Source of the DNA: Escherichia coli
GTDB taxonomy: Bacteria; Pseudomonadota; Gammaproteobacteria; Enterobacterales; Enterobacteriaceae
NCBI RefSeq assembly: GCF_016026235.1
Contig: NZ_CP065613.1
Length of the DNA: 64,000 nucleotides
Strand: one strand, 5' to 3'
Position numbers and translations under genes: made by a program. Positions 8,588 through 57,978 of the stretch are shown piece by piece. How positions within the stretch are numbered: position 1 is the first letter of the stretch; each line of letters opens with the position of its first letter. The notes under the pieces were generated by a model. It saw nothing but the letters and a program-made list of their open reading frames with translations, had not been told where the DNA came from and ran no database searches.

Positions 8588-9523
8588 TTATTTCACTTCA
8601 ACCACATTCAGCCGTAACTCATCCAACTGATTTTCATCTTCTTCTGGCTGCCAGCCCGCCGGTTGTAGTGGGATCTCTTCGCGATCAAACGCCAGATCAC
8701 CCCCGTTAACCACTTCAGAACCGTGGGTGATGCCTTTGAAATCGAACAGGTTGGTATCGCACAGATGCGACGGCACCACATTCTGCATCGCGCTGAACAT
8801 CGTCTCGATACGCCCTGGATAACGTTTATCCCAGTCCCGCAACATGTCAGCAATCACCTGACGTTGCAGGTTAGGCTGTGAACCGCACAGGTTGCACGGA
8901 ATAATCGGGAACGCTTTTGCATCGGCAAATCGCTGAATATCTTTCTCGCGGCAGTAGGCCAGCGGACGAATAACGATATGTTTGCCATCATCGCTCATCA
9001 GTTTCGGAGGCATACCTTTCATCTTGCCGCCGTAGAACATATTTAAGAACAACGTTTGCAGGATATCGTCACGATGGTGGCCCAACGCGATCTTCGTCGC
9101 CCCCAGTTCCGTTGCGGTGCGATAAAGGATACCGCGACGTAGCCGAGAACACAGTGAGCAAGTGGTTTTGCCCTCTGGAATCTTCTCTTTCACGATACCG
9201 TAAGTGTTCTCTTCAACAATCTTGTACTCAACGCCCAGCTTTTCAAGATACTCGGGCAGAACGTGTTCCGGGAAGCCCGGTTGCTTTTGATCGAGGTTAA
9301 CAGCCACCAGCGAAAAATTGATTGGCGCGCTTTGCTGCAAATTGCGCAGAATCTCCAGCATGGTATAGCTGTCTTTACCCCCGGAGAGGCAAACCATGAT
9401 GCGATCGCCTTCTTCAATCATATTGAAGTCAGCAATGGCTTCGCCCACGTTACGACGCAGACGTTTTTGTAATTTGTTCAGATTGTATTGTTCTTTCTTT
9501 GTAATTTGTTGATTTTCTTGCAT
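8588..9523 (-). CDS. ttcA: tRNA 2-thiocytidine synthase TtcA; its 5' end is supplied by the prophage junction
   Basis: 311 aa with SGGKDS PP-loop and Cys motifs; start [17 protein letters not shown] overlaps the att core. Confidence 0.9.
9474..9499. other. Prophage att core, left copy (TTGTTCAGATTGTATTGTTCTTTCTT)
   Basis: 26-bp sequence identical to 57929..57954; sits in the first codons of ttcA next to the integrase gene. Confidence 0.65.
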
Positions 9524-9574
9524 TATTTCAGTTCTCTGGTACTAAATGGGGCAAATTGGGGGCAAACTTTGCAA

Positions 9575-10810
9575 CTACGATAACCGCGCATTCAACATGG
9601 CTATCTGTTCGTCGTTCATGTCATCAATCCACATACCGTAAATTTCATACACCATTTGCGCAGTTTCATGCCCCATCTGGCTGGCTATAAATGCCGGGTT
9701 CGCTCCTGCCGTCAACAGCCAGCAGGCAAAAGTATGTCGCGTATGGTACGGATTACGGCGGCGAATACCAGCACGTTTTACTGCTGCATTCCATCTCGCA
9801 CCCAAACTGCTTACCGAGTAATAAGGTTTCTGTTTTCCGTTACACATCCTGGGCATGAAAACAAAATGCAGTTTTTGCTTTTCGGTTCTGCCGTACTCCC
9901 GATGATAAAAAGTGATTTCGCTTTTGCGATGATGCCCGGTCAGTTTGTATTGCTCCTTCAGTGCTTCAAGAGCTGGCTGTAGTAATGTTACCGTCCGGAT
10001 CCCGGCATTTGTTTTTGGGGGACCGAACATATCAAGTATCGTCAGGTTTCTTCTGACATTCACAATTCCCTTCTCGAAATCCACATCCTCCCACGCCAGA
10101 GCTGCCAGTTCCCCGTGACGAAGCCCGGAGTAAACGGCAAATTTCCACAAGTTTTGGCTCTGTCCTTTTTCACTTTCCATTAATGCATTGAATTCTGTTT
10201 TAGATAACGGGTCAGGCTTTATTCTGTTTCGCTGTAATTTTTTTACTCCTTCAAATGGTTTGGTTGATATAAATCCCGACTGATACGCAAAACGTAACAG
10301 CGAACAGAGCAGGGCGATATAGTTATCAACTGTGCGCACGGTTCTTCCTTTTTTGTTGGATCTTGGATTATCCAGGTAAAGCGTTTCTCCATGCAGCAGT
10401 TCATTCCGGTAGTTTAAGATATCGCTATAACGAATATATGATATCGGGGTACTTTCACAAATTATTATTCTGAGTGTTTTTAATTGTGATTTCGTTTTCT
10501 TCATTGTGTTTGTTGTTAACTCTGTCTCTTTAATTTTTGTCCAGATATCACAAAGCTCCCCGAACGTTTTTATGACTCTCGTTGTCACCATTTTTGCCCC
10601 AGTGCTGGACTGGGGAAAACGTCTTAAATACTCAAATTCACCGGAGTTTATTTCATGAACTATCAGCGCTCTTAAATTTCCGGCCTTTTTAATATTACTG
10701 TTTGTAATCTCCCAGCCTTTTAATGTTTCCCGACATCGTTTTCCTCGAAACATGAACCAGATGCGAATGTTTCTACCTCTAATCTCGACACCTGTTGGTA
10801 ATTTAGACAT
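9575..10810 (-). CDS. Phage integrase (tyrosine recombinase), IntR-like
   Basis: 411 aa; C-terminal catalytic region (…HTRHTFACWLLTAGANPAFIASQMGHE…YGMW) typical of lambda-family integrases; adjacent to the att site. Confidence 0.85.
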   Translation of the reverse strand: MSKLPTGVEIRGRNIRIWFMFRGKRCRETLKGWEITNSNIKKAGNLRALIVHEINSGEFEYLRRFPQSSTGAKMVTTRVIKTFGELCDIWTKIKETELTTNTMKKTKSQLKTLRIIICESTPISYIRYSDILNYRNELLHGETLYLDNPRSNKKGRTVRTVDNYIALLCSLLRFAYQSGFISTKPFEGVKKLQRNRIKPDPLSKTEFNALMESEKGQSQNLWKFAVYSGLRHGELAALAWEDVDFEKGIVNVRRNLTILDMFGPPKTNAGIRTVTLLQPALEALKEQYKLTGHHRKSEITFYHREYGRTEKQKLHFVFMPRMCNGKQKPYYSVSSLGARWNAAVKRAGIRRRNPYHTRHTFACWLLTAGANPAFIASQMGHETAQMVYEIYGMWIDDMNDEQIAMLNARLS

Positions 10811-10811
10811 A

Positions 10812-11027
10812 TCATGAGTCTTTGATAAACTGATTTATCTTTGGATAGTTGTACCAGATAATCCCTCGTTTGCTGTCTGGCTTACCTAAAGGAGATACTC
10901 GTTTGAAGTGGAAGCCCTCCACCCAACAGTTCTGGCGGTATGCTTCAATTTGTCTGGCCCCCAGACCAGTGCGAAGCATCAGGCCGTATTCAACCATCCA
11001 CTCTTCATTAAAGATTACTTGTGCCAT
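10812..11027 (-). CDS. Excisionase-like protein
   Basis: Small basic protein directly upstream of int ([16 protein letters not shown]…); ORF extends to 11051 but the start is probably the internal Met. Confidence 0.6.
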
Positions 11028-11126
11028 CGCATCACCTCTGGCAGGCGCCAATGTTAGACTGAAATTGACGCCTGATGTTGATTATTAATAATCAGCTATG
11101 AAGTTCTAATCTGGATATAATGAAAT

Positions 11127-11315
11127 TCACGAGGACTGAAGTTTCTCGCAATTAAAATTTATCAGTTTTACTTTCTGCTCTCTGGAAACGCCTGCTTCTT
11201 TTTCCCCTGAGAGCATTTTTTCGCATTCTGATTTCGTTAGTTTTGTCTTTGAGTATCTTGTCCAGCTGGCAGGAGAACCACCTTCCTTTTCAATAGTGGC
11301 TGTAATTTTATACAT
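11127..11315 (-). CDS. Hypothetical phage protein (62 aa)
   Basis: ATG preceded by GGAGGTG; no recognisable motif. Confidence 0.4.
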   Translation of the reverse strand: MYKITATIEKEGGSPASWTRYSKTKLTKSECEKMLSGEKEAGVSREQKVKLINFNCEKLQSS

Positions 11316-11354
11316 GAACACCTCCATTAATATTTTCCCAAAATGCACTTGGTT

Positions 11355-12452
11355 TTACACCGGAATATTCTCATCGTATCCTGCTTGTTGCGTTTCGTTT
11401 TGTGTTTGTGGATCCGGGAATGCATATTCAACGCCTTCCAGTTCAATCCATAGTGCATTACGACCAGCTTTGATTGTCGGCCAGTCCATACCTTTGATTC
11501 TTTCCCATGAGCGGGAGGTGAATGTTTTTTCCAGCAAATCAGCTTTTGCGCGTTTGGCGTCGTTACTGGTGCCCCCATGGTGCTTGTTGAGCAACTCGAT
11601 AATTTCATCAAGTGCGATTTCTTTTGCACGCTTTTCTTTTAGCCATGTCGGTGTACCGTCGTTGGCAAATAATTCACTGTTATCCCGTGAGGTATCGATG
11701 CCGAGGTGTTCACCTCCCAGGTTAAGAAACTCGATATGAGGAAGAAAGTTTTTAAATGTTGGGTTTGAAAATACCTGTCCATCAATACGGGTGGAGCGAT
11801 CTTTTAGTATTCTGGCGGTGCGCCACACCTGACCGGTTTCTATGTTCATTTGCTTCTCCATCTGGATCAGGATGGAGGGTTCATAACCGGTTTCTGTTTC
11901 TGCTTTCATTTTTATACCGGTTTTTGCCAACTGGCGTTTGCCATCATCACCTTCGAAAAAGTCATACTCATATCCTGCACGCCCGCACATAATAATGTGC
12001 GCCTGACTGTTAACAAATCGATCGGTAAAGCGTCGCCACTCCTGTTTGAGCCACGCCCAGTCTGAAAATTCCAGTCCTCGTTTACGGTTTCGGCGTCTGG
12101 CATACTCGTCGCATAATCCGGTCCAGAAGTGACTGATGGAGTCGATGATCATTACGGAACCGCTGCTTTCCGCTTCATTAATGGCTTCAAGCAGATCAAC
12201 AAACGAGCGGGTTTTTGCCGTAAATAATTCGATATTTTCCGCATCAAAGCGGGGTTTAACCCAGTCAGAGCCTGTTTCTGTGTCCAGAAACATTACCGGG
12301 CGGTTACCAGCTTCAATTCCCCGTTGCCGCATAAGCATTACCAGACCAATAGCCAGTTCGCTTGCTGTGTAGGTTTTGCCGTCGCCAGCAAACCCCATAA
12401 TTCCTGCTTTTAGATAGGCCTGTGTGTTTATTGCTCGTTGAAAAAGCGCCAT
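11355..12452 (-). CDS. RecA-fold P-loop ATPase, Sak4-like
   Basis: 365 aa; Walker A GFAGDGKTYTA and Walker-B-like VMIIDSISHFW; strong SD; sits in the recombination-module position next to int/xis. Confidence 0.55.
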   Translation of the reverse strand: MALFQRAINTQAYLKAGIMGFAGDGKTYTASELAIGLVMLMRQRGIEAGNRPVMFLDTETGSDWVKPRFDAENIELFTAKTRSFVDLLEAINEAESSGSVMIIDSISHFWTGLCDEYARRRNRKRGLEFSDWAWLKQEWRRFTDRFVNSQAHIIMCGRAGYEYDFFEGDDGKRQLAKTGIKMKAETETGYEPSILIQMEKQMNIETGQVWRTARILKDRSTRIDGQVFSNPTFKNFLPHIEFLNLGGEHLGIDTSRDNSELFANDGTPTWLKEKRAKEIALDEIIELLNKHHGGTSNDAKRAKADLLEKTFTSRSWERIKGMDWPTIKAGRNALWIELEGVEYAFPDPQTQNETQQAGYDENIPV

Positions 12453-12457
12453 AGATT

Positions 12458-12757
12458 TTAGTCCTCCAAATCAATATCAACCTGGTGGTGGGCAATGGTT
12501 TCAGCCATGTACCGGATGTGTTCTGCCATGCGCTCCTGAAACTCAACATCATCATCAAATGCGTGGCTGATTGCCTGTTTATTGGCACCGTGGCGTTGCA
12601 AATGGTCGATGCAGAGCGATTCAAACAGGTGCTGAGGCAGACCTTTTTCCAGGTCGTCCGCCAGTTCCGTTTCTTTTTCTTCACGAACGATCTGCTGGTA
12701 GTGGCGAGCCCATGCCATTTCTTCAATACGATCAAAAATCGGGTAAGCGCTCATCAC
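12458..12757 (-). CDS. Hypothetical acidic phage protein (99 aa)
   Basis: ORF only; translationally packed between the large early gene and the ATPase gene. Confidence 0.4.
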
Positions 12758-13106
12758 TGGTCACTCCAAAATTTTCAAGCTTGTTGGCAATCATCATTGC
12801 GATGTCAGGGATTGCAGGCGCATAGGCTATGCACGCAGGATTCGCACATAAACCGTAAACCGCCGCAATCAACACCTGTTTTTTCCAGTTGAGTTCATCT
12901 TCGCCAGTTTCATTATTGCTATCATTATGCTGATCGCTGCCAGCGTTCTCCGGTAACAAATCATCAGCTTTTCCGTTTTCTTCGGCTCTTCTTCCTGTGC
13001 TTCATCTGGTTTTTTTTCGTCAAAAGTTTCCTGATAAGTTGCGTCTCCCATCACCGCGCCACAGTCAGGGCAGTTATCCTCGCCAGTCTGATTGCAGGGT
13101 GTTCCC
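12732..13106 (-). pseudogene. C-terminal remnant of the large early-left gene, cut off by the IS10-like insertion and carrying a further frame break
   Basis: Reading from the target duplication at 13106 continues the 14401..15975 frame (…[16 protein letters not shown]…); switches to the -1 frame at a T4/A4 run near 12969..12979 and ends at 12732. Confidence 0.5.
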
Positions 13107-14400
13107 CTGAGGGATCCCCAGAAAATTTAGTAAACCATTATCATATTGGTATACCGTTGCTGTAGAACTTTCAGCCCTGCGTCAAGTGACAGTGTGTTTA
13201 GTATGAGTGGAGAATGTCGAATCACATTCTCCGCCAGTTTTAATAACGAGATGACTCGCCTGTGCTTCACTGTATTTGCCTGATATTTATGATGTATCCC
13301 TTTGTTTTCCAGGCTGAAACCGCTTAACCACATAATGATACTGGCTAATGTTGCGATCAGACTCAATACCGTGACCCGCCCGGATGAATGACTGGCACCA
13401 AACCGTAGTCCAAATCCCCAGCGAGGATTTTTTTCATCCCTGAAATTTTGCTCAATTTGCATTCTACGGCTGTATAATTTCATTACCTGTTTTGGCGAGA
13501 ACTCAGTACTGTTTGTGAAAATAAACCATGGTGATTTCCCGGCAGTACGAGCTTTAGCCGTCACCGATGGTCTGGTTGCTCTTTCCTTCGAGCGTTTAAA
13601 TCTACGACCTTTAGGCTTACTTTTATAAAGATAAAAATGCCCTTCATGTTGTGCATTTTTATCTCGACCCAGCAGGCCTTCACCTAAATAAATTGCTGTC
13701 GTTGATGCTTTTGTGCCTGAGTCCGACACCTTTTCCCAGCCATTACCAACATTGTAATAATGATTGCCCAGTACCCGGCAAATATAGGTCCAGCCACGGG
13801 AGCGGAGCTGTTGGAACCATCGCCCCTGAAAACCGGCATCTGTAATAACAATGACATCAGTCCCGGGGGAAAAGCACTCAGCAAGCGATTCCAGAAAACG
13901 CTCATGTACATCTGCATTCGCTGTCTGTGATGATGGAACGACACAACTCATCAACGGTAAAGAACGCCCGTCACATGCCAGGCTTGCCCGCAAAAGCTGA
14001 AAACGAGAGGCATGATAAGCACTCCAGTCAATGAGTATCACAACACGAGACATTCCCCGCGTAATCTTTTGGGTAATTCGCTGAAAAATGGTGGAAACCT
14101 CATTTTGCAAATGTCGATTCCCCAACAGTCGATCCACCCGCTTTATTTTGTTTTTAACTGATGCCGTACCGGTTAAATGACGCCCGATACTGGTAAGTGT
14201 GAGGGAAGCGCCATTTATTACAGCATTAGTTGCGTCAATCAGTGATTTTTGACGGTAAAGATGCAAAGGGGCCAGTATGTTGTTAAGGAAATTTTGGCAT
14301 AATGAACGTGCAGGCATAGTGGTGATCTCCTTGAAATTGTTAGCACAATCAATTAGATCACATCTCACTATGCCTGTCTTGTTTTCTGGGGATTCCTCAG
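13107..14400. mobile_element. IS10-like insertion sequence (IS4 family), 1294 bp
   Basis: Ends CTGAGGGATCCCCAGAAAA / TTTTCTGGGGATTCCTCAG (about 22-bp imperfect inverted repeats, IS10-like CTGA termini); flanked by direct repeat GGGTGTTCCC at 13097..13106 and 14401..14410. Confidence 0.8.
13127..14317 (-). CDS. IS10-like transposase (DDE, IS4 family)
   Basis: Blocks resembling IS10 transposase as I recall it: KRVDRLLGNRHL, VILIDWS, ITDAGFQGRWF, YSRRMQIEQNFRDEK, QANTVKHRRV; ORF extends to 14368. Confidence 0.8.
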   Translation of the reverse strand: MPARSLCQNFLNNILAPLHLYRQKSLIDATNAVINGASLTLTSIGRHLTGTASVKNKIKRVDRLLGNRHLQNEVSTIFQRITQKITRGMSRVVILIDWSAYHASRFQLLRASLACDGRSLPLMSCVVPSSQTANADVHERFLESLAECFSPGTDVIVITDAGFQGRWFQQLRSRGWTYICRVLGNHYYNVGNGWEKVSDSGTKASTTAIYLGEGLLGRDKNAQHEGHFYLYKSKPKGRRFKRSKERATRPSVTAKARTAGKSPWFIFTNSTEFSPKQVMKLYSRRMQIEQNFRDEKNPRWGFGLRFGASHSSGRVTVLSLIATLASIIMWLSGFSLENKGIHHKYQANTVKHRRVISLLKLAENVIRHSPLILNTLSLDAGLKVLQQRYTNMIMVY

Positions 14401-15975
14401 GGGTGTTCCCTCCTCCGGTTCGCTGTTCTGGTGCTGTTTATCTTCAGTCTGTCGCACTTCATTTTCCGTTTTTTTGACTTCATTTGAGGAGATATGATGA
14501 CCGGGAATCCATTTCGGATCATTCGGGTCGCTAATCCCTTCAACAAATTCTCCGCGAGAGGCAGCCAGTAATTTGTCTGCATCGACAGGATTTTTGGGCG
14601 GAATGTTTTTCCGGGCTTCATGGAGTTCTGCCCGCAGTTCCTGATATTTCTCATCAACAGCATTTACCTGTGACTGAGCATCCAGCGGCTGCGTGTCCTG
14701 ATGATGTTCAGTTGCATCCGGTTCCACTGTTTCAGCCGTTGCCTGTTCATCTGCCATTGCGCAAGATGGTTGCGGTTTTTCTTCATCATCCTGTTTTCCT
14801 TCTTCTGTTACTCGCTGCGGCATCGGGGCAGAGGAGCGACCGCAGGCAATATCCACGATTTCCGGATCAGGGTTGGCATGATCGGTTTCAGTCAGTACCT
14901 TGTTCAGATATTCAGTGACGTGCGCGGGGATGACCTCGATACCAATCGGTGCTTCTTTCACTGACGCAACCACGATGGCGCGGGAATAATCCATCCCGCC
15001 AGGCATGGTGATGAATTTGTCGCGGAAAACAGAAAAGGGCGGTTTATTTTCAGTGATAATTTCCTCAATGCGTTTAGCGTGTGCCGGATGAAGATTATAA
15101 ATATCCACGTCCATTGAACGGGCCAGTACGCCAGTGGCTACGTCGCGCGCCAGCGACGTCAGATCGTGGACGAAACCTTCGCCGCGATCGGTGAGGTTCC
15201 CGCCGCCAGCATTAGCACCGGAAGCCGTGCGAGTGATACGCGAAACACGATTTCCTTTCATCCACTCTTTTGTCAGCAGACCGCGATCGGTGTAGTTGGC
15301 ATCCAGATATGCTTCGAAAAAAGCAGTCATCAGTCCCAGATTTGAATTGCCAGGATTAGGGAAAACTTTGTCAGTATCACGCACGAGTTTGTGGAGGTCG
15401 CGAATCTCCAGCGGGTCGAGCAGACTGGTTTTATGCGAAACAGCCAGAGCAGTAACAGCCGGTAGTTCTTCATCCCGAGCAATGTGTAATGCCTGGAGTT
15501 CGTCGCGTGAAACGTGCGTTACCGGTTTTTCGCTGCCGTGTTGCGCAAGCCAACGAATGGGCAGTTCCTGACCGGAAACTGGCAGGAGCATGTTCTCCTC
15601 AATTTCTGTCATGTCTTCGCCGTTGACGTTGGTATTGTCAGTGCTGGCTGGTTTGTCCTGAACAGAGGGAGAAGATGCGATAAATACCATTGTGATGCCA
15701 TCTTCCCCGCCTTTTTCGTAACGGTTGCAGAATTCCGTATCAAACACGCCTTCTGGTGGGAGGTCATCAACAACGGGCAAATTGACGCGAACAGGTTTTT
15801 TAAAGTCATCTTCATCGTAGCCAGCATCGTCAATCGCAACAGCACCACGGGAGATGGCAATGGATAATTTTTTCGCTTCAGCCCAGTAAAAACCGCCTTT
15901 AATACCGAGGCGTTTTCTTACTTTGTCATTTTTTGCTTCGTAATACAGTGGGTAAACTTGTTTATCGGTGCTCAT
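14401..15975 (-). CDS. Large acidic early-left phage protein, 3' end truncated by the IS insertion
   Basis: 535-aa ORF whose last 10 codons plus stop (14368..14400) are IS-derived; original product about 650 aa; no P-loop or other motif recognised. Confidence 0.5.
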
Positions 15976-15998: not shown

Positions 15999-16295
15999 TC
16001 AGATTGCATAAAAGAAACGAACTGATGATGCGATATGAGAGAGTTCTTTCAGTCGTTGATAACTGATACCGTATTTCTTGTCAGCCTCTTCAATGCGAGC
16101 TGTGAGTAATGCAATTTCTTTAATGGCACATACACAACAATCAAATGTTCCCAGAACGTAACCGTCATCAATAATTACCGTGACGTTTTCTTTTTGGGAA
16201 ATCTGAATGAAACTATGTAATGTATTCCCACATTTAAATTCGGCGAGAGAATCGTTAATAACATCAAGTTCAATTTCACATTCAATAATGCTCAT
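15999..16295 (-). CDS. Hypothetical phage protein (98 aa)
   Basis: ATG preceded by AGGAAACA; ORF-track version begins upstream at 16343. Confidence 0.4.
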   Translation of the reverse strand: MSIIECEIELDVINDSLAEFKCGNTLHSFIQISQKENVTVIIDDGYVLGTFDCCVCAIKEIALLTARIEEADKKYGISYQRLKELSHIASSVRFFYAI

Positions 16296-16369
16296 TGCTG
16301 TTTCCTTTTTTAAGGTTGAGTGAATCCCTGCCATTGCTGGCATAAATTCAGTTTCGAATATTCAGTTAA

Positions 16370-16657
16370 TTAAAGTTCGTGTGCCATCTTGTCTTTTTCG
16401 GCACAAGCTGCACTGCAATATTTTCGTTTCTTTCTGGCAATCATGTTTCCATGCATATAAATAAGCTCGCCAGTAAAAGCTTTTTCAGGTAAAAACTGTT
16501 TATTGCAGAGATGGTAATCACATTGTATTAAATCCAGGTCACCTTTTTGCTGGAGAATTTTTCTGATTCTCCACAGCCATTTTTTAATCCCGGTATGACT
16601 GATGGTCTGCCTGAGGGCAGGTGTAAAACAATAATCAAGCATGGGGTTCATATCCAT
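16370..16657 (-). CDS. Hypothetical Cys-rich phage protein (95 aa)
   Basis: ORF with several Cys pairs (CDYHLC…CSAAC). Confidence 0.35.
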   Translation of the reverse strand: MDMNPMLDYCFTPALRQTISHTGIKKWLWRIRKILQQKGDLDLIQCDYHLCNKQFLPEKAFTGELIYMHGNMIARKKRKYCSAACAEKDKMAHEL

Positions 16658-16667
16658 AGCTCCATTT

Positions 16668-17213
16668 TTATTTTAAGGAAAGCAACTGCTCTACGGTCAT
16701 GTTTTTAATTGCGCCCCGGTTTACAAGAGTCCAGCCCTGTTTTTCCAGATAAAACCGGAAAGTCTCCAGGGTACAGACCAGTGCGCCATCAGGAACGGTT
16801 TCGGTGAATTCGACATTGCCGAATTTGTCGAAGTGAACAACCAGAGTGCGACCATCACCCGGAATCATCTTGTCAGCAGGTGGGGTGTTATTCTGGCGCA
16901 GTTCGGCCTCCATGCGGTCGAACTCAGCAATGTAGGCTTCCTTGAATGTGGCGGCTTTTTTGCCCGTGAAGCCCATCACCAGGAAAACGAAGCCGTTTTT
17001 GGTGATTTGGTAGGCGTTATAAGAATTGCCGCGGTGTTCGAATTTAACCCGCGAAAAGTTGCTGGTTAAAAATAGTTCAGAACATTCGAGGGATTCTATT
17101 TTTTGAACAACATGGTGATGCTGCTTGCCAAAAAACTCAGCAATCGAAATAGAAGTAGTGACGGCGCGACCATTTTCGATGGTTACGTCAGGGTGAGAAA
17201 GGGTAGTAGCCAT
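16668..17213 (-). CDS. Rha-family phage regulatory protein / antirepressor-like
   Basis: MATTLSHPDVTIENGRAVTTSISIAEFFGKQHHHVVQKIESL… resembles the Rha N-terminal domain; GAGGA 7 nt upstream of this Met; the ORF extension to 17507 contains a terminator. Confidence 0.55.
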   Translation of the reverse strand: MATTLSHPDVTIENGRAVTTSISIAEFFGKQHHHVVQKIESLECSELFLTSNFSRVKFEHRGNSYNAYQITKNGFVFLVMGFTGKKAATFKEAYIAEFDRMEAELRQNNTPPADKMIPGDGRTLVVHFDKFGNVEFTETVPDGALVCTLETFRFYLEKQGWTLVNRGAIKNMTVEQLLSLK

Positions 17214-17378
17214 AATGACATCCTCAAGTGATAAGTTAATTAACTCACCAGCAGAGGTGCTAATCTCATGGGTGGTGAGACGCACAGGGTTAGCACTACC
17301 GGTCACTCGAGAACCCGGCCAGCCTTGCGGCTGCCCCGCACGCCTCACCATAATTTGAATGTGGCTGTGCATTACGCA

Positions 17379-17402
17379 TAAAAAAACCGCTTCAGCGCGG
17401 TT
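17379..17402 (-). terminator. Rho-independent terminator (minus strand)
   Basis: Minus-strand read AACCGCGCTGAAGCGGTTTTTTT; lies inside the upstream extension of the Rha ORF. Confidence 0.45.
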
Positions 17403-17529
17403 ATGCGCTCGAGTAACTTTCGGGGTGCTAATCCCGGCACCCGTTTTATGAGGTGCAGGTGCACTATAATTCCACCCGTTCTGGTTTTCAATAGCTACAT
17501 TCAACATTTTCTCTTTCCTTTCATCACCG

Positions 17530-17684
17530 AAGTGAATTTTGTGATGCGGTGCCTGGTGCCTCCAGGTGACGTTAACCAGTTAACAATTACAGTCGGCTTT
17601 CCCACCCAAAACAATAAGGACTAACATGACTTTTAACTGTGCCGCGTGCGCTTAGCCGCATTCACCGCATCACAAAATTCACTT
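17530..17684. repeat. 22-bp perfect inverted repeats flanking a 111-bp spacer
   Basis: AAGTGAATTTTGTGATGCGGTG at 17530..17551 and its exact reverse complement at 17663..17684; the spacer holds its own palindrome GTTAACCAGTTAAC. Confidence 0.6.
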
Positions 17685-17920
17685 TAAAAAGGGCGGACAT
17701 CAGCCAGCAATTAAACCGATGCCGCCAACTGGTACTTCACACAGCAATGTCGTTATTTACAACCGGAAGCGCACTCCCACCATTTAAATTTCACAGACAA
17801 GACCGACTCTTTATGAATACCGGAAATGCGCCTTCGTGTTGTGCCCGGTTTTATTTCACCACCTCCGGGCTTTGGTGGTATCTTTACTGAAGTTCTCACA
17901 CAACCAGTAAGGAAATGAAT

Positions 17921-18238
17921 ATGCCAACGTATCTCGCCAGAGTAGAACTATATAATGCTGAGCCAGAGGATTACGAAGGGCTTCATAAATATATGCTCTC
18001 ACTAGGATTCAGGAGAACGATCCCCCATGGAGATGGTTCGTATAATCAACTCCCGGACGGAACTTATGTTTCCGAAAAGGGCGGTGATATTTATCAAATT
18101 CGCAGCCAGATATCTGACTATGCAGACCGACTATCCGGGTATCGCGCGTCTGTTTTGTTTGCGAATTCAGTCAATGCGCATGGTATTTATACCCCGCCAA
18201 GACCCGGTGAATATCCTGCACGGCCTTCTGCTTTGTAG
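17921..18238 (+). CDS. Hypothetical 105-aa protein encoded against the direction of the early-left operon
   Basis: AAGGA SD 7 nt before ATG at 17921; MPTYLARVELYNAEPEDYEGLHKYMLSLGF…; converges on the ydaF-like gene. Confidence 0.5.
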   Translation: MPTYLARVELYNAEPEDYEGLHKYMLSLGFRRTIPHGDGSYNQLPDGTYVSEKGGDIYQIRSQISDYADRLSGYRASVLFANSVNAHGIYTPPRPGEYPARPSAL

Positions 18239-18390
18239 AAGGCTTCTTCGCTATCATAATCGCCAGATTCCAGCGCTTCTTTAGCCAGCCAGATGCGTGC
18301 CCCAGTGCCTGCATTTGGCTCCAGTTGCTGGAGGCGTTTTGCATCTTCTAGGAGTAGAGCGATAACGTGTTTTAATTCTGTCTCGTTCAT
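18187..18390 (-). CDS. Small phage protein, YdaF-like by position
   Basis: 67-aa ORF from the internal ATG with SD GGTGAG; sits where Rac has ydaF; family assignment is by position only. Confidence 0.4.
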   Translation of the reverse strand: MNETELKHVIALLLEDAKRLQQLEPNAGTGARIWLAKEALESGDYDSEEAFYKAEGRAGYSPGLGGV

Positions 18391-18391
18391 T

Positions 18392-18547
18392 TTACTCACC
18401 TGAATGTCTTCCCAACCAACGACGTGCGCCAGCTTCGGTTTTAAACGTTTTGCTTTTGGTATACGTCATGGCGGTGAATGTGCCGTCTTGATTGGGAAAC
18501 ACGCCACATACCAGAGATTCGTTGTTGCCAAGATCGATAGTATTCAT
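18392..18547 (-). CDS. Small phage protein, YdaG/YdfA-like
   Basis: 51 aa MNTIDLGNNESLVCGVFPNQDGTFTAMTYTKSKTFKTEAGARRWLGRHSGE, resembling small early-left proteins of Rac/Qin as I recall them. Confidence 0.45.
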   Translation of the reverse strand: MNTIDLGNNESLVCGVFPNQDGTFTAMTYTKSKTFKTEAGARRWLGRHSGE

Positions 18548-18744
18548 GTTGACCCCATTTCCCCTTAACGCCGGGTGGCGGAACGTTTTATCTACTGCGC
18601 TTTGTATCAATCAACAACTGCCGTCATGTTCGTATGCCTCAGGCTGGCTACTTAGCCCTGTTCAGTGACTGGATAACTCGAGGTATTGTCCTGCCGTTCT
18701 CTGGTGGGGCGTTGTTTGGATATGCTTATTAAACACAATTTGTT

Positions 18745-18775
18745 TTCTTATGTCAACACGTAATGTGTTTTATGG
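18745..18775 (-). promoter_or_regulatory. Candidate early-left (pL-like) promoter with operator AACAC-N5-GTGTT
   Basis: Minus-strand TTGACA, 17-bp spacer, TTTAAT; overlapping half-sites at 18755..18769. Confidence 0.4.
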
Positions 18776-18799
18776 TGGGTGTCATATGATGATGCTACA

Positions 18800-18830
18800 A
18801 AAAAGCCCGCTGATAGCGGGCTGATTGGCA
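18800..18830 (-). terminator. Rho-independent terminator downstream of the repressor gene (minus strand)
   Basis: Minus-strand hairpin CAGCCCGCTATCAGCGGGCT followed by TTTTTT. Confidence 0.45.
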
Positions 18831-18852
18831 TATTACTGTGATAGCAAGATCA

Positions 18853-19272: not shown

Positions 19273-19283
19273 TGCATCCTTGT

Positions 19284-19298
19284 ATCACGAATCGTGAT
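19284..19298. promoter_or_regulatory. Perfect 15-bp palindrome ATCACGAATCGTGAT in the repressor/cro intergenic region
   Basis: Directly upstream of the repressor start codon. Confidence 0.35.
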
Positions 19299-19318
19299 TT
19301 ACATAAAACACAAAACAG

Positions 19319-19351: not shown

Positions 19352-19368
19352 GTCATCGGAGGTTTTCA

Positions 19369-20030: not shown

Positions 20031-20093
20031 GCAAAAGTTTCCATGCTGTTTGTGCTTATTCTAAGCAACCGGGCAGCATCATACGGGGCAATT

Positions 20094-47729: not shown

Positions 47730-47786
47730 TGAAAAACGTTTTATGTGAAACCGCCTCCGGGCGGTTTTGTCGTTTATGGAGCGTGA

Positions 47787-51198
<3,412 letters not shown>

Positions 51199-51219
51199 AA
51201 TTGTTATAACCCATATAAG

Positions 51220-51243
51220 GGCACCAGAAATGGTGCCTTTTTT
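51220..51243 (+). terminator. Rho-independent terminator after J
   Basis: GGCACCAGAAATGGTGCC followed by TTTTTT. Confidence 0.5.
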
Positions 51244-51267
51244 ATTGCAGAAAAGCGAGAGGTAATT

Positions 51268-51867
51268 ATGCGTAAACTTTATGCCGCCATTTTGTCCGCA
51301 GCCATTTGTCTGGCCGTATCCGGTGCGCCTGCATGGGCATCTGAACATCAGTCCACGCTGAGCGCGGGGTATCTTCATGCCTCGACGAACGTTCCCGGCA
51401 GCGATGATCTTAACGGGATTAACGTGAAATACCGTTATGAGTTTACGGACACACTGGGGCTGGTGACGTCATTCAGCTATGCAGGAGACAAGAATCGCCA
51501 GCTTACCCGTTACAGCGATACCCGCTGGCATGAAGATTCCGTGCGTAACCGCTGGTTCAGCGTGATGGTGGGGCCGTCTGTGCGCGTGAATGAATGGTTC
51601 AGCGCGTATGCGATGGCGGGTATGGCTTACAGCCGTGTGTCGACTTTCTCCGGGGATTATCTCCGCGTAACTGACAACAAGGGGAAAACGCACGACGTGC
51701 TGACCGGAAGTGATGACGGTCGCCACAGCAACACGTCTCTGGCGTGGGGAGCTGGCGTGCAGTTTAACCCGACCGAATCCGTGGCCATTGACCTTGCTTA
51801 TGAAGGTTCCGGCAGTGGCGACTGGCGCACTGACGGTTTCATCGTGGGTGTCGGTTATAAGTTCTGA
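51268..51867 (+). CDS. lom: Lom/Ail-family outer membrane beta-barrel protein
   Basis: 199 aa with signal peptide and C-terminal …GVGYKF; classic moron position after J. Confidence 0.8.
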
Positions 51868-51930
51868 TTAGCCAGGTAACACAGTGTTATGACAGCCCGC
51901 TGGTTCAGGCGGGCTTTTTGTGGGGTGAAT

Positions 51931-53343
51931 ATGGCAGTAAAGATTTCAGGTGTACTGAAAGATGGGGCGGGTAAACCTGTCGTAAATTGTGCGATTGAAC
52001 TGCGGGCCAGAAGAACCAGTCCGACCGTTGTGGCACACGTTGTTGCCACTTGCGTGACGGACAATAACGGTGCTTATGTGATTGAGGCTGAGCCGGGGTA
52101 TTACGAGGTTGCGCTTCACTGTAACGGCTGGCAGCCAACCCGTGTCGGGGATATTGATGTGGCACCGACTGATGCACCGGGGACACTGAACGCGTTTCTG
52201 AATGCACCAAAGGATGGTGATTTACGTCCGGAGGTGATGAAGCGCTTTGAGGAAATGGTGGCGCAGGCGCAGCAGAGTGCCGGGGCTGCAGCCGGAAACG
52301 CACAGCAGACGGCGCAGAATGTGGCGGCAGCCGCAACGGCCCGTGATGATGCACAACGTTTTGCGGAGAATGCCAGACAGGATGCAGTTGCCACTGCAGA
52401 GGACAGAAAGGCCACTGCGGAAGACGTGAAAAGCACGGGGAAAAACGCCGTCTTATCCGGTCAGCGTGCACAGGCAGCCGCAGGTTATGCCCGCGCAGCA
52501 GAACAGGCCAAAAATGACATTGATGCTGCGCTGACCGGCACTCTGAAAACGGCTAACCATCTGTCAGAAATCGCAGCAGCAGGCGAAAAGGCACAACAGA
52601 AGTCCCGGGATAATCTGGGGCTGAAAAGTGCGGCCACGATGGAAGCACAGAGCGACATTTACGACCGGACAAAAGGCCGTCTGGCGATACCCGGCGCATT
52701 CGGCTTTGGGTGTGCTTTTCTGCCTGAAGATGTTATCCGTTTTGACACTAAGAGTGATTTCCTGGCCTGGGTAAGGAATGCGCTGCCAGGTGAGTATTCC
52801 GTTGCTGGCCGCCTGGGCATCATACCCGACACACGGTTTGAAGGGGTGCTCAGCATCCGGTGGACTGATGCACGCCCTGAGACAACAGAACCGCGGTACA
52901 GAGCCAAATCCCTTACTTTTTACGGCATTAACGGCCCCATTTATCACACCCGCTACTGCTACTGGCCCATATCCAGACTGACTGACTGGGTGAAAATAAA
53001 TATAACCACAGAAGATATTATTTACAGAATCGTGGCGAGCTCTGTCTGCAACAGATGGGGAGACCCTGACATTGGCGGGCTGATTATTGCTGCGTACCAG
53101 GGAGAAGCTGACGGTGATAAAGTCATCAGACTTGTCAGGGGGCAGTCATACAGAGGCTCACGACTGGGACCGGTGGGGATTTCAGTGCCCAGTACTCCCA
53201 CCGGAACGCATATAGCATACCCACAATTTTTCATTACGGGATGTTCAGAGCATTCATTACCGGGGTCATATTGCGCCCTGTCCGGGGTGCCGGATGCACA
53301 TGTCTCTGGCGCAATGCCCGGGCTTTTTATTCGCACATCGTGA
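51931..53343 (+). CDS. Side tail fibre protein (Stf-like)
   Basis: N-terminus MAVKISGVLKDGAGKPV… as in lambdoid Stf; 471 aa from this Met. Confidence 0.7.
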   Translation: MAVKISGVLKDGAGKPVVNCAIELRARRTSPTVVAHVVATCVTDNNGAYVIEAEPGYYEVALHCNGWQPTRVGDIDVAPTDAPGTLNAFLNAPKDGDLRPEVMKRFEEMVAQAQQSAGAAAGNAQQTAQNVAAAATARDDAQRFAENARQDAVATAEDRKATAEDVKSTGKNAVLSGQRAQAAAGYARAAEQAKNDIDAALTGTLKTANHLSEIAAAGEKAQQKSRDNLGLKSAATMEAQSDIYDRTKGRLAIPGAFGFGCAFLPEDVIRFDTKSDFLAWVRNALPGEYSVAGRLGIIPDTRFEGVLSIRWTDARPETTEPRYRAKSLTFYGINGPIYHTRYCYWPISRLTDWVKINITTEDIIYRIVASSVCNRWGDPDIGGLIIAAYQGEADGDKVIRLVRGQSYRGSRLGPVGISVPSTPTGTHIAYPQFFITGCSEHSLPGSYCALSGVPDAHVSGAMPGLFIRTS

Positions 53344-53353
53344 GGAATGCACC

Positions 53354-53917
53354 GTGGAAATTAAAAAAATCATTAATCCCCGTTATACCGAAAGTGGCGC
53401 AGTAGACTGTGACGTTTTTTTTGACGACAGGGACCAGGCAGTTCCCTACACAGCCACCGCTGATGATGTCGCACCGACGGGTCAGCAAATCTGGCAGGAA
53501 CTGCAAAGTGGCAAATGGGGTGAGATAGCCCCATTCACTGTGACACCAGAAATGCTGGAAGCGGCCAGAGAGGCCAGACGTCAGGAAATTGAAGCATGGC
53601 GCGCAGAACAGGAGGCGAAGCCGTTCACGTTTGAATGGAACGGTCGTATCTGGAATGCTGGTCCCGACTCACTGGGCCGCCTGTCCCCGGTAGTCATGCT
53701 GGCAAAATCTGTCACAGCACAAACACATATGGCGTGGAGCGATGCCGATAATCAGCAGGTGAAACTGTCGATGCCGGAACTGGAAGAACTGGCGGCAGCA
53801 ATGGTGCAGGCGCAGGTCGATCGCAACGATGAGATTTATCGCCGTCAGCGGGAGCTGAAGGAAGAGCTGAATAGTCTGAAGGATTTGAATTCGGTTAGGA
53901 ATTTTATCGTGGAATAA
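53354..53917 (+). CDS. Tail fibre assembly protein (Tfa-like)
   Basis: ORF after stf; GTG at 53354 preceded by GAGGAA; ORF-track start at 53294 overlaps the stf 3' end. Confidence 0.55.
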   Translation: MEIKKIINPRYTESGAVDCDVFFDDRDQAVPYTATADDVAPTGQQIWQELQSGKWGEIAPFTVTPEMLEAAREARRQEIEAWRAEQEAKPFTFEWNGRIWNAGPDSLGRLSPVVMLAKSVTAQTHMAWSDADNQQVKLSMPELEELAAAMVQAQVDRNDEIYRRQRELKEELNSLKDLNSVRNFIVE

Positions 53918-54117: not shown

Positions 54118-54975
54118 CTAATTGGGTGATAACAGATCCTGTGTATGGGCGTTTCCCTTTGTGCGTGCGTTGATGCTGGTAACGGTAAACGTCATGATGA
54201 ACACGACCGCGAATAAGACGACAATCGTCGGAGCTGGTGCGCTGTCGATAAAAAAGGACAGCCAGACACCAGTCATTGACACTATTACCGATATGCCAGT
54301 CGCCAGTAGGAGCGCAATATGAAAGCGTTGTGTCAGGAGTACTGCAATGGCGCCAGGCGCAATGAGCAGAGAAATAGAGAGAATGATACCTACTGCTTTC
54401 AGCGTCGCCACAATGGTCAGGGAAACCATGCACAGCAGCCCATAATGCAGCCATCTCGTATGCAAACCGCTTACCTGCGCCTGTTGATAATCAAAGCTGA
54501 ACAGCAAAAAATCCCGCCATTTTACGCTAATAACAAGTGTAACCAGCCCGGCAATAATCACCGTCTGGATTATATCGCCGATGGTTATCCCGAGCATGTC
54601 GCCGAAAAGAATATGGTCAAGATGTACGTCTGGTTTGATTGCAATATACAAGATCAGACCTGCGGCAAACATGCCAGAAAAAACAATCCCCATAACTGTA
54701 TCTTGCTTGATTCGGCTGTTGTCTTTCAGGTATCCCGTCGCCACCGCGCAGAATACTCCGGCGACGAATGCCCCTGTAGCCAGAGGTAACCCCAGAATCC
54801 AGGTAAGCACGATGCCAGGAAAAACCGCATGACTCATCGCGTCACCCATCAGTGCCCAACCTTTCAGGACCAGAAAGACCGACAGCAGCGCACAGGGTAT
54901 GGAAACTACCAGTGAAATCAGCAGTGCGTGACTCATAAAGGTGAACTGCAGTGGCTCCAGTAATAATGCCATCAT
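54118..54975 (-). CDS. sitD: Mn/Fe ABC transporter permease SitD
   Basis: 285-aa polytopic membrane protein; last gene of a four-gene operon with overlapping stops and starts. Confidence 0.8.
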   Translation of the reverse strand: MMALLLEPLQFTFMSHALLISLVVSIPCALLSVFLVLKGWALMGDAMSHAVFPGIVLTWILGLPLATGAFVAGVFCAVATGYLKDNSRIKQDTVMGIVFSGMFAAGLILYIAIKPDVHLDHILFGDMLGITIGDIIQTVIIAGLVTLVISVKWRDFLLFSFDYQQAQVSGLHTRWLHYGLLCMVSLTIVATLKAVGIILSISLLIAPGAIAVLLTQRFHIALLLATGISVIVSMTGVWLSFFIDSAPAPTIVVLFAVVFIMTFTVTSINARTKGNAHTQDLLSPN

Positions 54976-55829
54976 GAGCGATCCTCCAGCGCTTTATGCG
55001 CACGCCGACGATTTGCCAAAAGTCCATGGGTGGGCGCAAATACAAATGCTAAAAGAAACAGCAGTGTCTGCGCCACCACGATGATTCCACCTGTCGCGCC
55101 GTCCAGAAAGTAACTGACCCACGCGCCGAGGAAACTGGTTACACTGCCAATAGTTACAGCAATTATGAGCAGGCGGGGAAAACGATCGGTTAACAACCAT
55201 GCTGTTGCACCGGGAGTCACCACCAGACAGATCACCAGAAAGGCACCAACCGTTTGCAGCGCCGCAACGGTCGAAACCGACAGCAGGGTGAAGAAGAGGA
55301 TTTTTAATCTGCCCGGATGTAATCCAATAGCACGGGCGTGATTCTCGTCGAAAAAGGTCACCATAAGATCTTTCCATTTGAAAAAAAGCACGATGATCGA
55401 GAGAATGCCAATGATAGTGAGTTGCAGGATATCCGCCGGATCGATTGCCAGAATATTGCCCAGGACGATGGTCTGAATGTTCACGGATGTCGGGTTCAAT
55501 GACACCATAAACAGCCCCAGGCCAAAAAAGGACGAGAAGATCAGGCCGATGATGGCATCTTCTTTTAAGCGGGTGCGTTGGTTAAGAAACAGCATGCTGC
55601 CCGCTGCCAGTCCGCCGGAAAAGAAGGCTCCCAGAGAAAACGGAAGCCCCAGCATATATGCCCCCGCAACACCCGGGACAATAGAGTGCGACAGCGCATC
55701 GCCAATCAGCGACCAGCCTTTTAGCATCAGATAGCATGACAGGAAAGCGCAGAGACCGCCGACCATTGCCGAGACCCACATCGCATTGAGCATATATTCA
55801 TAGCTGAAGGGTTCCAGTAGCACGTTCAT
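54972..55829 (-). CDS. sitC: Mn/Fe ABC transporter permease SitC
   Basis: 285-aa membrane protein, paralogous to the next permease. Confidence 0.8.
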
Positions 55830-56653
55830 CTTGCTTCCCTCTGCACCGCTGACGGTCGATGTGCCACAAAAGGGCGTTCATCGTCAGTAATAATGCTTTC
55901 TTCCGAGCCGTTAAGTGTGACATGGCGCAGTACGCCGCTAAAAGCCAGCTCCAGGTTCTCGGCTGTAAAAGTGGTGTCTGTCGGCCCGCTTGCCAGGACG
56001 GTGCCTTTGACCATGACCGTATAATCGCAAAATGTCGTGACTGAGCCGAGATTGTGCGTTGAGACAAGCATCGTTTTGCCTTCCGCGCGTAACTCCCTCA
56101 ACAGGCTGATGATTTTCGCTTCGGTTTTCACATCAACGCCGGTAAAAGGTTCATCCAGCAGGATCACATCACCCTGCTGTGCAATCGCTCTCGCCAGAAA
56201 GACGCGTTTCTTTTGTCCACCGGAAAGCTCGCCGATTTGACGATGGCGAAAATCCACCATATCGACACGTTCCAGCGCATCGGTGACAATCTGACGATCC
56301 CTCTTTTTGGCTATACGCAACATACCCATATGCCCATAGCGGCCCATCATCACCACATCTTCCACCAGTACAGGAAATGACCAGTCAACCTCTTCTGACT
56401 GAGGGACGTAGGCAACCAGGTTTTTCTGTAGCGCCTGTCGCGTGGGAATACCCAGAACAGATATCTTTCCGCTGGTCAGACGCACAAATCCCATAATCGC
56501 TTTAAACAACGTCGATTTTCCGGAACCGTTTACCCCAACCAGAGCGGCAATAGATCCACTTGGTACTGTGAAGGATGCATCGCGCAGTGCTGTGTGCCCG
56601 TTACGCCAGGTGACAGTAACATCATTAACGACAATGCCTGCAGATTGCATCAT
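55826..56653 (-). CDS. sitB: Mn/Fe ABC transporter ATP-binding protein SitB
   Basis: GVNGSGKST Walker A, LSGGQ signature, ILLDEP Walker B. Confidence 0.85.
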
Positions 56654-57567
56654 TATTTCTCCCTTTTCCCGGCTTTAATTCCCTGTACCAGCGTACTGGT
56701 AGTAACCTTAAGAAGGTCGATATACGTAGGTACCGGGCCGTTTTCTGTGCTCAGGGAATCGACATAGAGCACACCGCCGTAGTGTGCGCCGGTTTCACGC
56801 GCAACCTGACGCGCTGGTTTATCGGAAATCGTACTCTCGCTAAAGACTGCCGGGATATGATTTTTCTTAACTATATCAACAACCTTACGTACCTGCTGCG
56901 GTGTTCCTTGTTGATCGGCATTAATCGGCCACAGATAAAGCTCTTTTAGCCCCAAATCGCGTGCGAGATAAGAAAAAGCCCCTTCACTGGTGACCATCCA
57001 TCGCTGATTCTCAGGGAGTTCCGTAATCTGCTTACGCAGGGGGGCAAGGGTTTGGGTAATCTTGGCTTTATAAGTATCGGCATTACGTTGGTAGGTTTGT
57101 GCATTTGCCGGATCGTATTTTATCAACGCATCACGAATATTATCGACGTAAATCAGAGCATTATCTGGCGACATCCATGCATGGGGATTAGGTTTGCCCT
57201 CATAGGGTCCTTCGGTGATCCCTACTGGCGTCACACCCGAAGAGACAATTACTTCTGGAACCCCATTGAGATGCTGGTAAAAGCGTTGGAACCACAATTC
57301 CAGATTCATACCATTGGCGAGAATCAGTTGTGCCCCCTGCGCACGTTTAATATCGCCAGGGGTAGGCTGATACTCATGAATTTCTGCACCAGGCTTGGTT
57401 ATGGATGAGACTTCTGCAGCATCTCCAGCCACGTTTTTGGCCATATCCGCGATGATGGTAAATGTTGTAATGACCTTGAATTTTTCAGTTGCACTTGCCT
57501 GAAATGCGATCGAGCAGGTGAGGGCGAGGCACCCCAAGAGCATGGTTACTTTTTTTATTGAGTGCAT
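56653..57567 (-). CDS. sitA: Periplasmic Mn/Fe-binding protein SitA
   Basis: 304 aa with signal peptide; closely resembles SitA as I recall it ([21 protein letters not shown]…). Confidence 0.85.
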
Positions 57568-57600
57568 AATTTAGTACCTATAGTGAGCAAAATTAGAACA

Positions 57601-57620
57601 AACATAGCAACGGCTATGTT
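57601..57620. promoter_or_regulatory. MntR-box-like inverted repeat (AACATAGC-N4-GCTATGTT) upstream of sitA
   Basis: Perfect 8-bp arms. Confidence 0.5.
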
Positions 57621-57641
57621 TTATAGCATAACCTATACAAA

Positions 57642-57662
57642 ATGAAAATAATTATCATTAAC
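57642..57662. promoter_or_regulatory. Fur-box-like site (GAAAATAATTATCATTAAC)
   Basis: Similar to the Fur consensus GATAATGATAATCATTATC. Confidence 0.5.
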
Positions 57663-57928
57663 AGCTTTGAGGCCTAAAACAGGGATTAGGTTGTTTCCTG
57701 CTGGCGACATGATATTGAGGAAAAAAGTAGAGCAGCTATTAGGCTTTGAAATGACTTTATGAGGAAAATTGTTGATGGCAAAAATGGGGCAAAACGCTGT
57801 AGAAGGGGCAAAAAAGGGGCAAAAAAAGAGTGGGTTATCGTAGCTTATTGTTGTCGCTGATAATGTTTAACATATTGAAAAATAAATAAAATACTTATGA
57901 GTCAGATAGTTGTGATTTTTGCCCTTAC

Positions 57929-57954
57929 TTGTTCAGATTGTATTGTTCTTTCTT
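57929..57954. other. Prophage att core, right copy
   Basis: Identical 26 bp to 9474..9499. Confidence 0.65.
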
Positions 57955-57978
57955 GCTAATTTCTTGATTTTGCGACAT
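57929..57978 (-). pseudogene. ttcC-like remnant (original 5' end of ttcA displaced by the prophage)
   Basis: Minus-strand ATG at 57978 encodes [17 protein letters not shown], matching the TtcA N-terminus, then runs into prophage DNA. Confidence 0.55.

Follow-up and report, generated by a model that had tools for sequence, protein, structure and literature searches.

Here, we report the analysis of a 64,000-nt stretch of Escherichia coli DNA (contig NZ_CP065613.1 of assembly GCF_016026235.1; hereafter the window, from whose first letter all coordinates are counted), in which positions 9500-57928 very probably constitute a lambdoid prophage that belongs to the Rac integration family and has a 26-bp core on either side. 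Judged by their sequence, the two 26-bp repeats represent the cores of attL and attR in a Rac-type integration in the 5' end of ttcA, because the core and the ends of Rac in strain K-12, the integrase and excisionase (IntR and XisR), the arms, the empty sites of prophage-free genomes and the annotated attP of the prophage Rac-SA53 all agree. The element is a known structure re-identified in another strain, and further public assemblies contain this prophage too; its closest relatives are found in enteroinvasive E. coli, the lineage from which the strain itself apparently comes. The exact prophage boundaries given below can be used for annotation.

Anatomy of the junctions in ttcA

Exactly two copies of the 26-mer TTGTTCAGATTGTATTGTTCTTTCTT are present in the window, both of them on the plus strand (attL core, 9474-9499; attR core, 57929-57954). 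Allowing up to three mismatches adds no other copy, and no exact match shared by the end regions is longer; the runner-up has 15 nt. An earlier note on this DNA had described a repeat at the start of ttcA with a second copy 48.5 kb away, and both copies are located exactly here. The left copy comprises codons 9-17 of ttcA, read on the minus strand; the gene (8588-9523, minus strand; tRNA 2-thiocytidine synthetase) is intact, and its 311-residue product is 100% identical to the annotated TtcA protein WP_001157407. The right copy lies within a 17-codon minus-strand open reading frame (ORF; 57978-57925), which encodes a 17-residue peptide of the MSQNQEIS type followed by a stop codon. From this translation and from the K-12 annotation, it is the displaced 5' end of ttcA and the counterpart of the K-12 pseudogene ttcC, in agreement with the suggestion that a minus-strand ATG here encodes a TtcA-like N-terminus displaced by integration. 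Position 57978, which had been given as the outer boundary, is the ATG of this remnant; the repeat itself ends at 57954.

Past the core, an imperfect likeness between the two ends continues up to both ATG codons (43 of 50 nt identical overall). Codons 1-8 of the integrated ttcA (9500-9523) are phage-supplied and encode MQENQQIT in place of the original MSQNQEIS, a change of four residues that has been published for the phage-supplied ttcA start (PMC4632033). The start of ttcA is restored, as had been proposed, but the repeat is not the source of it: the 24 phage nucleotides at 9500-9523 supply the eight surrogate codons. The integrated ttcA sits 51 bp downstream of intR, on the same strand.

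The motif GGGGCAAA occurs nine times in the window, against 3.2 copies expected, and five of the nine cluster beside the two cores, where they are putative arm-type Int sites. Two of them (9548-9566, plus strand) are candidates for the P' arm and are identical in K-12 Rac and Rac-SA53, and three (57786-57823, plus strand) are candidates for the P arm and are conserved at the right end of K-12 Rac.

Comparison with K-12 Rac, empty sites and related prophages

Both annotated ends of K-12 Rac carry the 26-mer at the same position, with one synonymous A/G difference (25 of 26 nt), the left core of the window being homologous to the left end of Rac and the right core to its right end, and the 51-nt stub at the right end of Rac is annotated as ttcC, like the stub here. 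The integrase gene intR (9575-10810, minus strand; 411 aa) is intact, with the Pfam domains Arm-DNA-bind_2 and Phage_integrase found on the identical gene of assembly GCA_014155105.1 (locus L026), and its product is 99.0% identical to K-12 IntR. The open frame of xisR (ydaQ; 10812-11027, minus strand; 71 aa) encodes a protein that is 100% identical to K-12 XisR, which has been shown to be the Rac excisionase (PMC4632033). The phage DNA between core and int is identical to that of K-12 Rac, including the 24-nt new start of ttcA and two GGGGCAAA motifs. Conservation also extends over about 170 bp leftward from the right core, with the three GGGGCAAA motifs there, and the homologues of ydaT, ydaU and ydaV are 83-96% identical.

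Deleting the window DNA from core to core in silico yields a 1206-nt ttcA-uspF junction. In a set of 5426 complete E. coli genomes, over which all genome counts were taken, this junction is present in one piece in 2486, and the best match (FDAARGOS_943) is 100.0% identical over the 1206 nt; the comparison with prophage-free genomes that the earlier note had proposed therefore finds the in-silico excision product as a real, contiguous junction. In 1854 genomes of the same set, intR lies beside ttcA. Site, core, IntR, XisR, N-terminal swap and matching empty sites all conform to the Rac integration module, and the assignment to Rac-type integration in ttcA, which the note had made, is borne out.

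The early genes give a different result. From the K-12 Rac early set (recET, ralR, kilR, sieB, racR/ydaS), the only homologues found are an interrupted recE and rcbA-, ydaE-, ydaF-like and ydaT/U/V genes; recT, ralR, kilR, sieB, racR, trkG and pinR of K-12 Rac are absent from the element. Unlike K-12 Rac, the element carries genes for an AAA_24 ATPase and a Gam-like protein, a different repressor/cro pair, four tRNA genes and sitABCD. K-12 Rac is 23 kb long and lacks the head genes, most tail genes and the lysis cassette, whereas the element measures 48.5 kb and has the complete set. The missing early genes lower the case that the element is Rac itself and leave its assignment to the Rac type standing, because lambdoid mosaics are usually grouped by their integration module.

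The contrast with a reduced Rac that the earlier note implied is not new, full-length Rac-like prophages having already been described, namely Sp10 (O157:H7 Sakai) and CP-933R (EDL933) (PMC4632033) and Rac-SA53; Rac-like prophages at ttcA are known in O157:H7, Shigella and Salmonella (PMC4632033, PMC6379469). Sp10, CP-933R and Rac-SA53 are, like the element, lambdoid and inserted in ttcA via the same int/att module with the same TtcA change (Sp10 and CP-933R being likened by their published description). Rac-SA53 (KU052037; 52 kb) annotates the same 26 bp as its attP. It covers just 25% of the early half of the element, at 92% identity; its virion module is unrelated, and LT-IIa toxin genes stand where the element has sit. 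When free phages were searched with the reconstructed attP, the int side matched Rac-SA53 and induced phages such as vB_EcoS-683R6, Salmonella phage SPF_0923 matched the arm and core only, and no phage record spanned the sit-side arm, the core and int together.

Proposed mechanism of integration

A mechanism can be proposed from the observed junction anatomy, homology, empty sites and gene content. The attP of the circular phage would contain a 50-nt copy of the ttcA start, made up of the 26-nt core and 24 diverged nucleotides up to the ATG, and IntR, a tyrosine integrase with an arm-binding domain, would recombine it with the identical 26 nt in the chromosomal ttcA. On the attL side, the body of ttcA would be kept and the host gene would stay functional with the eight phage codons for MQENQQIT; at attR, codons 1-17 of the original gene would be stranded 48.5 kb away as the stub, together with their upstream DNA. 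IntR and XisR together would carry out the reverse reaction, restoring the ttcA-uspF junction. By analogy with work on K-12, we infer that the Int/Xis/att set is still active and that excision is possible today; virions would presumably also be produced.

Gene content between the cores

Annotation was transferred from close relatives and supplemented by family searches. The DNA between the cores makes up one lambdoid genome with a typical gene order from int to tail fibre, and this genome is a mosaic of a Rac-like early region, cos-type, mEp460-like head and tail genes, a lambda-like J C-terminus and the sitABCD cargo. The genes for terminase, portal, protease-capsid, tail, tape measure and J form a complete and collinear set. 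In phage mEp460 and its relatives (Ayreon, cdtI and Tritos), the terminase-to-J module is collinear with that of the window and 91-94% identical over approximately 19-21 kb, and the late half as a whole is 92-94% identical to mEp460 or functional phages of its group; unlike the element, these phages have different integrases and attachment sites, lack the sit operon and show no broken reading frames. The early half is mosaic too, and no single phage record matches more than 30% of it.

The late genes all lie on the plus strand. The genes for the small and large terminase subunits (terS and terL), a gpW-like protein, the portal and a fusion of a ClpP-type protease with the major capsid protein occupy 32870-39180, and are followed at 39267-51198 by head-tail joining genes, the tail tube gene, G/T chaperone genes, the tape-measure gene (42358-45398), M, L, K, I and J (47790-51198), and at 51268-53917 by lom, a side-tail-fibre N-terminal gene and a DUF4376 gene. 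The lysis cassette (30059-31970, plus strand) consists of genes for a holin (30059-30274), a 209-aa ORF, an endolysin (30973-31506) and the Rz spanin (31503-31970); all of its ORFs are open and it lies downstream of a Q-type antiterminator gene, as expected. The 209-aa ORF (30278-30907), in the gap between holin and endolysin, has no Pfam record, and its PHROG matches are all to families of unknown function (phrog_1085, 117-288 of 296).

On the early side, xisR is followed on the minus strand by a DUF1187 (rcbA-like) gene, the genes for the AAA_24 ATPase (11355-12452) and the Gam-like protein (12458-12754), and the 3' fragment of recE (together 11127-13106, assigned from relatives and K-12). 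The 365-aa ATPase and the Gam-like protein are encoded (11355-12754) beside recE, where K-12 Rac has recT-ralR, and represent a different recombination module. The 5' fragment of recE (14401-15975, minus strand) contains a 535-aa ORF that matches positions 1-523 of the 877-position NCBIfam exodeoxyribonuclease VIII profile before running into an insertion sequence (IS). The early and immunity region (15999-22432, both strands; from relatives and family searches) holds genes for Rha (16668-17507, minus), a repressor (18853-19272, minus) and a cro-like protein (19369-19611, plus), as well as ydaT, a ydaU-like initiator gene (20043-21242), a ydaV-like gene (21249-21995) and a DUF977 gene. A nin-like region (23743-29247, plus strand) contains HNH, DUF551, hok (26259-26414), DUF1367, DUF1364, a Q-like antiterminator (27863-28417) and ORF6N genes. 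Four tRNA genes (CAT, Arg-TCT, Thr-TGT and Gly-TCC; 29456-29766, plus strand) stand in tandem between the Q-like gene and the holin gene; the same cluster is present in the VL40 relative, where the CAT tRNA is annotated as Ile, against Met assigned by ARAGORN in the window.

Two insertion sequences interrupt the early half, and both insertions are structural and real. In recE lies a 1294-bp IS4-family (IS10-like) element (13107-14400, minus strand; transposase 13127-14368, NCBIfam transpos_IS4_2, E = 1e-107) with 22-nt inverted ends, flanked by the direct repeat GGGTGTTCCC at 13097-13106 and 14401-14410 (a target duplication of 9-10 bp); the same truncation of recE occurs in four other assemblies, three of which are short-read drafts whose contigs stop at the IS. 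The second element (22446-23695, minus strand; 1250 bp, IS3 family, NCBIfam transpos_IS3, E = 4e-90), with 27-nt inverted ends TGAAGTGGTCAACAAAAACTGGCCACC, we take to be IS911 from its length and its end sequence.

State of the reading frames

Several observations weigh against an intact Rac-type prophage that arrived as one phage. The gene recE is interrupted, and IS911 replaces about 0.85 kb that the VL40 relative retains (DUF4406 and ead/Ea22-like genes). Six essential virion genes (terS, terL, portal, protease-capsid, tape measure and J) are frameshifted, such that the literal sequence encodes no viable phage, and one of these frameshifts, a shortening of G6 to G5 in the capsid gene, is common to the window and GCA_014155105.1, where the gene is not called. 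Furthermore, none of the complete E. coli genomes in RefSeq contains 80% or more of the early half at a single location; relatives have their int and sit ends at separate prophage junctions; and the exact mosaic may have arisen by recombination between resident prophages rather than from one arriving phage. The earlier statement that the element retains full morphogenesis and lysis genes accordingly stands as far as gene content is concerned; as written, six virion genes are frameshifted, probably through assembly error, recE is split and an IS911 lies in the early region.

Compared with intact homologues, the virion genes contain eight deletions of one base, each in a homopolymer of at least five bases, with terL and J carrying two apiece. 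Five are situated in the genes from terS to capsid (32978, 33476, 35393, 36592 and 38455), one in the tape-measure gene (44571) and two in J (50237 and 50286). The indels relative to close relatives, including those at 12969, 13010 and 18157, are likewise all one-base deletions in homopolymers of at least five bases; in the late region, 5 of 19 G runs (at least five bases) are shortened, whereas none of the 49 A or T runs of 5-7 bases is. The flanking chromosome has no coding indels.

Homopolymer statistics alone could not separate slippage from assembly error; sister assemblies, found through exact-protein look-ups, favour assembly error. Assembly GCA_014155105.1 matches window positions 4368-25974 (L026) with four clustered mismatches and one gap, 29675-43177 (L034; 13.5 kb) with no mismatches and five gaps, and 41271-51962 (L011; 10.7 kb) with no mismatches and three gaps. 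The four mismatches fall within 10 nt of the DUF1187 gene (11244-11253) and are the sole substitutions in 21.6 kb. Seven of the eight deletions in the window are missing from this assembly (four of the five in the head region, in L034, and all three of the tape-measure gene and J, in L011), and terS, terL, portal, tape-measure and J genes are called there at full length, the portal gene being present in three copies. The National Collection of Type Cultures (NCTC) assembly GCA_900449985.1 (L036) matches 29676-43172 with no mismatches and 11 gaps, in both directions.

The absence of seven of the eight deletions from GCA_014155105.1, which shows zero substitutions over the 13.5- and 10.7-kb stretches, makes these seven probable assembly errors of long-read consensus; the capsid-gene change, shared by two assemblies, may be genuine. 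Because three assemblies share the head region without a substitution and differ solely in homopolymer length, the pattern has the signature of long-read consensus error; the module would be hard to polish because it is multi-copy, and the indel-free chromosomal flanks fit such an explanation. The truncated portal, tape-measure, J and capsid proteins have no match in a collection of 15 billion proteins, which is weak evidence, since a whole-sequence exact match was needed. A frameshifted tape-measure gene in VL40 was considered as independent support and rejected, its frameshift lying at a different position.

The alternative is that the homopolymer frameshifts are real as a set and that the prophage is grounded, able to excise and unable to build particles, as K-12 Rac at an earlier stage of decay. 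Eight deletions across six virion genes, the G6-to-G5 change shared with GCA_014155105.1, two IS insertions showing that decay has begun, the indel-free coding parts of the chromosomal flanks and relatives among enteroinvasive E. coli and Shigella-like genomes, which are rich in IS and pseudogenes, all speak for it. This is nonetheless unlikely in view of the seven deletions missing from GCA_014155105.1 over 13.5 and 10.7 kb that are free of substitutions, the different homopolymer indels, in both directions, over the substitution-free 13.5-kb head stretch of GCA_900449985.1, the confinement of the window changes to deletions in runs of at least five bases, the obstacle that a multi-copy module poses to polishing, and the absence of the truncated proteins from the protein collection. 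The element is a clear example of a multi-copy prophage module whose seeming pseudogenes most likely reflect assembly errors in homopolymers.

Origin of the mosaic

An origin by recombination within the cell is possible because no complete E. coli RefSeq genome has as much as 80% of the early half in one place and the ends are split in relatives. In a stronger form of this idea, the element would be a composite, its int-early part and its tail-sit-attR part coming from different resident lambdoid prophages that were joined either by homologous recombination in the cell or by mis-assembly over the multi-copy structural genes. The two halves are indeed separated in relatives, lying approximately 600 kb apart and in opposite orientation in VL40 and approximately 500 kb apart in VL7S7, and the prophage of GCA_014155105.1, which has the portal gene three times, runs after lom into a tfa/pin/ynaE end like that of K-12 Rac and not into sit. 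Against this, head, tail, sit, uspF and ompN are collinear in the NCTC assembly GCA_900449985.1 as in the window, there is a single integrase, the two cores form direct repeats, and both arms (P and P') agree with those of K-12 Rac. We consider a chimera improbable, slightly more so than real decay of the virion genes, and even a recombinant would stay a Rac-type prophage bounded by these att sites. As a separate observation, the split ends in VL40, VL7S7 and GCA_014155105.1 suggest that recombination between resident lambdoid prophages has caused large rearrangements in these genomes.

That the 26-bp repeat is a chance or unrelated repeat (a target-site duplication or REP-like sequence) that does not mark the ends of an element, for which only its short length speaks, was rejected as practically negligible: the 26-mer had no match in 100 dinucleotide-preserving shuffles, not even a single copy, both copies are in frame with identical ttcA codons, real empty sites equal the predicted junction exactly, and the homologous positions in K-12 are the annotated ends of Rac.

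The sitABCD cargo

The Rac-type prophage carries the iron/manganese ABC transporter operon sitABCD as a moron, or cargo, at its right end. The four open ORFs of sitDCBA (54118-57567, minus strand) end approximately 360 bp from attR, just inside the P arm, and the arrangement sitA-attR-uspF is found in one piece in 494 of the 5426 genomes. As phage cargo, the operon is already known from Perceval, a lambda-like prophage of E. coli LF82 in which particle production persists (PMC9928086). Perceval and the element of the window share the DNA upstream of sitA, and a search with the reconstructed attP found nothing in Perceval that corresponds to the int/att part of Rac. A virulence-associated metal transporter is thereby placed on a potentially mobile phage of the Rac type.

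The sit genes share their strand with the displaced ttcA start and begin approximately 360 bp downstream of it; between the two are a Fur-box-like sequence, AAAATAATTATCATTA (identified by eye), and a weak terminator-like hairpin (57621-57600). As the operon is downstream of the ttcA stub and on its strand, the stranded promoter-like site at 58102-58074 (described below) points into sit.

A candidate integrase fossil upstream of ttcA

The 15-mer that is the second-longest match between the end regions is common to the int coding region (9741) and the DNA upstream of the native ttcA start (58072), and extends to an ungapped alignment of 51 nt between 58059-58109 and the int coding DNA at 9728-9778, with 39 of 51 positions identical and a score (42) that none of 500 shuffles approached (highest, 25). 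The chromosomal copy, read on the minus strand, gives KCADIFPSNPYHTRHSF, compared with KRAGIRRRNPYHTRHTF for residues 345-361 of Int, and tblastn aligns Int residues 345-369 with it (E = 3e-5); within NPYHTRH of the fossil peptide NPYHTRHSF, all differences from Int are synonymous. The putative decayed 3' end of an integrase gene (58035-58109, minus strand) belongs to the chromosomal region upstream of ttcA, which is bounded by the uspF terminator and the displaced start of ttcA, and overlaps the lone sigma-70-like site there.

The same remnant is carried by prophage-free ttcA loci of Citrobacter, Enterobacter and Klebsiella (L046, 2632-2952; L045, approximately 2875-2964; L041, approximately 2796-2891, respectively). 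In Citrobacter youngae, it covers Int residues 316-411 (96 residues, 70% identity, E = 6e-48) between uspF and ttcA and is followed by TTTGCCCC arm-type repeats; 30 Int residues are matched in Enterobacter roggenkampii (80%, E = 1.5e-13) and 32 in Klebsiella pneumoniae (47%, E = 6e-4).

A five-way alignment contains an invariant block, GTGCTG..ATT...AATCCGTACCATAC, which includes a -35-like/-10-like pair at a spacing of 17 nt. The -35-like element is CTGGTA or CTGGCA in the intact int and in the better-preserved remnants of Citrobacter and Enterobacter, and CTGACA in the decayed copies of E. coli and Klebsiella; the -10-like element is TACCAT. In the native upstream DNA, the only sigma-70-like site on the ttcA strand is CTGACA-17-TACCAT (58102-58074), which stays at the attR stub and faces sitA. 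In the lysogen, no such site exceeds the scan threshold within 600 bp upstream of ttcA, where the int-embedded CTGGTA-17-TACCAT scores just below it.

From these alignments we tentatively propose, at somewhat less than even confidence, that the uspF-ttcA intergenic DNA is the decayed 3' end of the int gene of an older Rac-like prophage that was deleted inside int, and that the retained block is, or became, the ttcA promoter; the fossil homology is the likelier of these two parts. A promoter embedded in int, if real, would explain how ttcA is expressed both with and without the prophage, and also why the first eight residues of TtcA are hypervariable. Our literature search for the ttcA promoter, or for an int remnant at ttcA, returned nothing relevant, which is no proof of being unpublished; the fossil may be new. 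If the proposal is true, every ttcA locus examined carries an integrase fossil with a promoter-like block, and phages would have replaced the promoter and the first codons of this host gene again and again, a side result that would outweigh the main finding in importance, the re-identification of a Rac-type prophage having little weight by itself.

Among the proteins of the TtcA cluster, residues 1-8 are hypervariable, differing in nearly every genus and strain group, and the protein is nearly invariant from residue 9 onward; this N-terminal variability fits repeated replacement of the 5' end of the gene.

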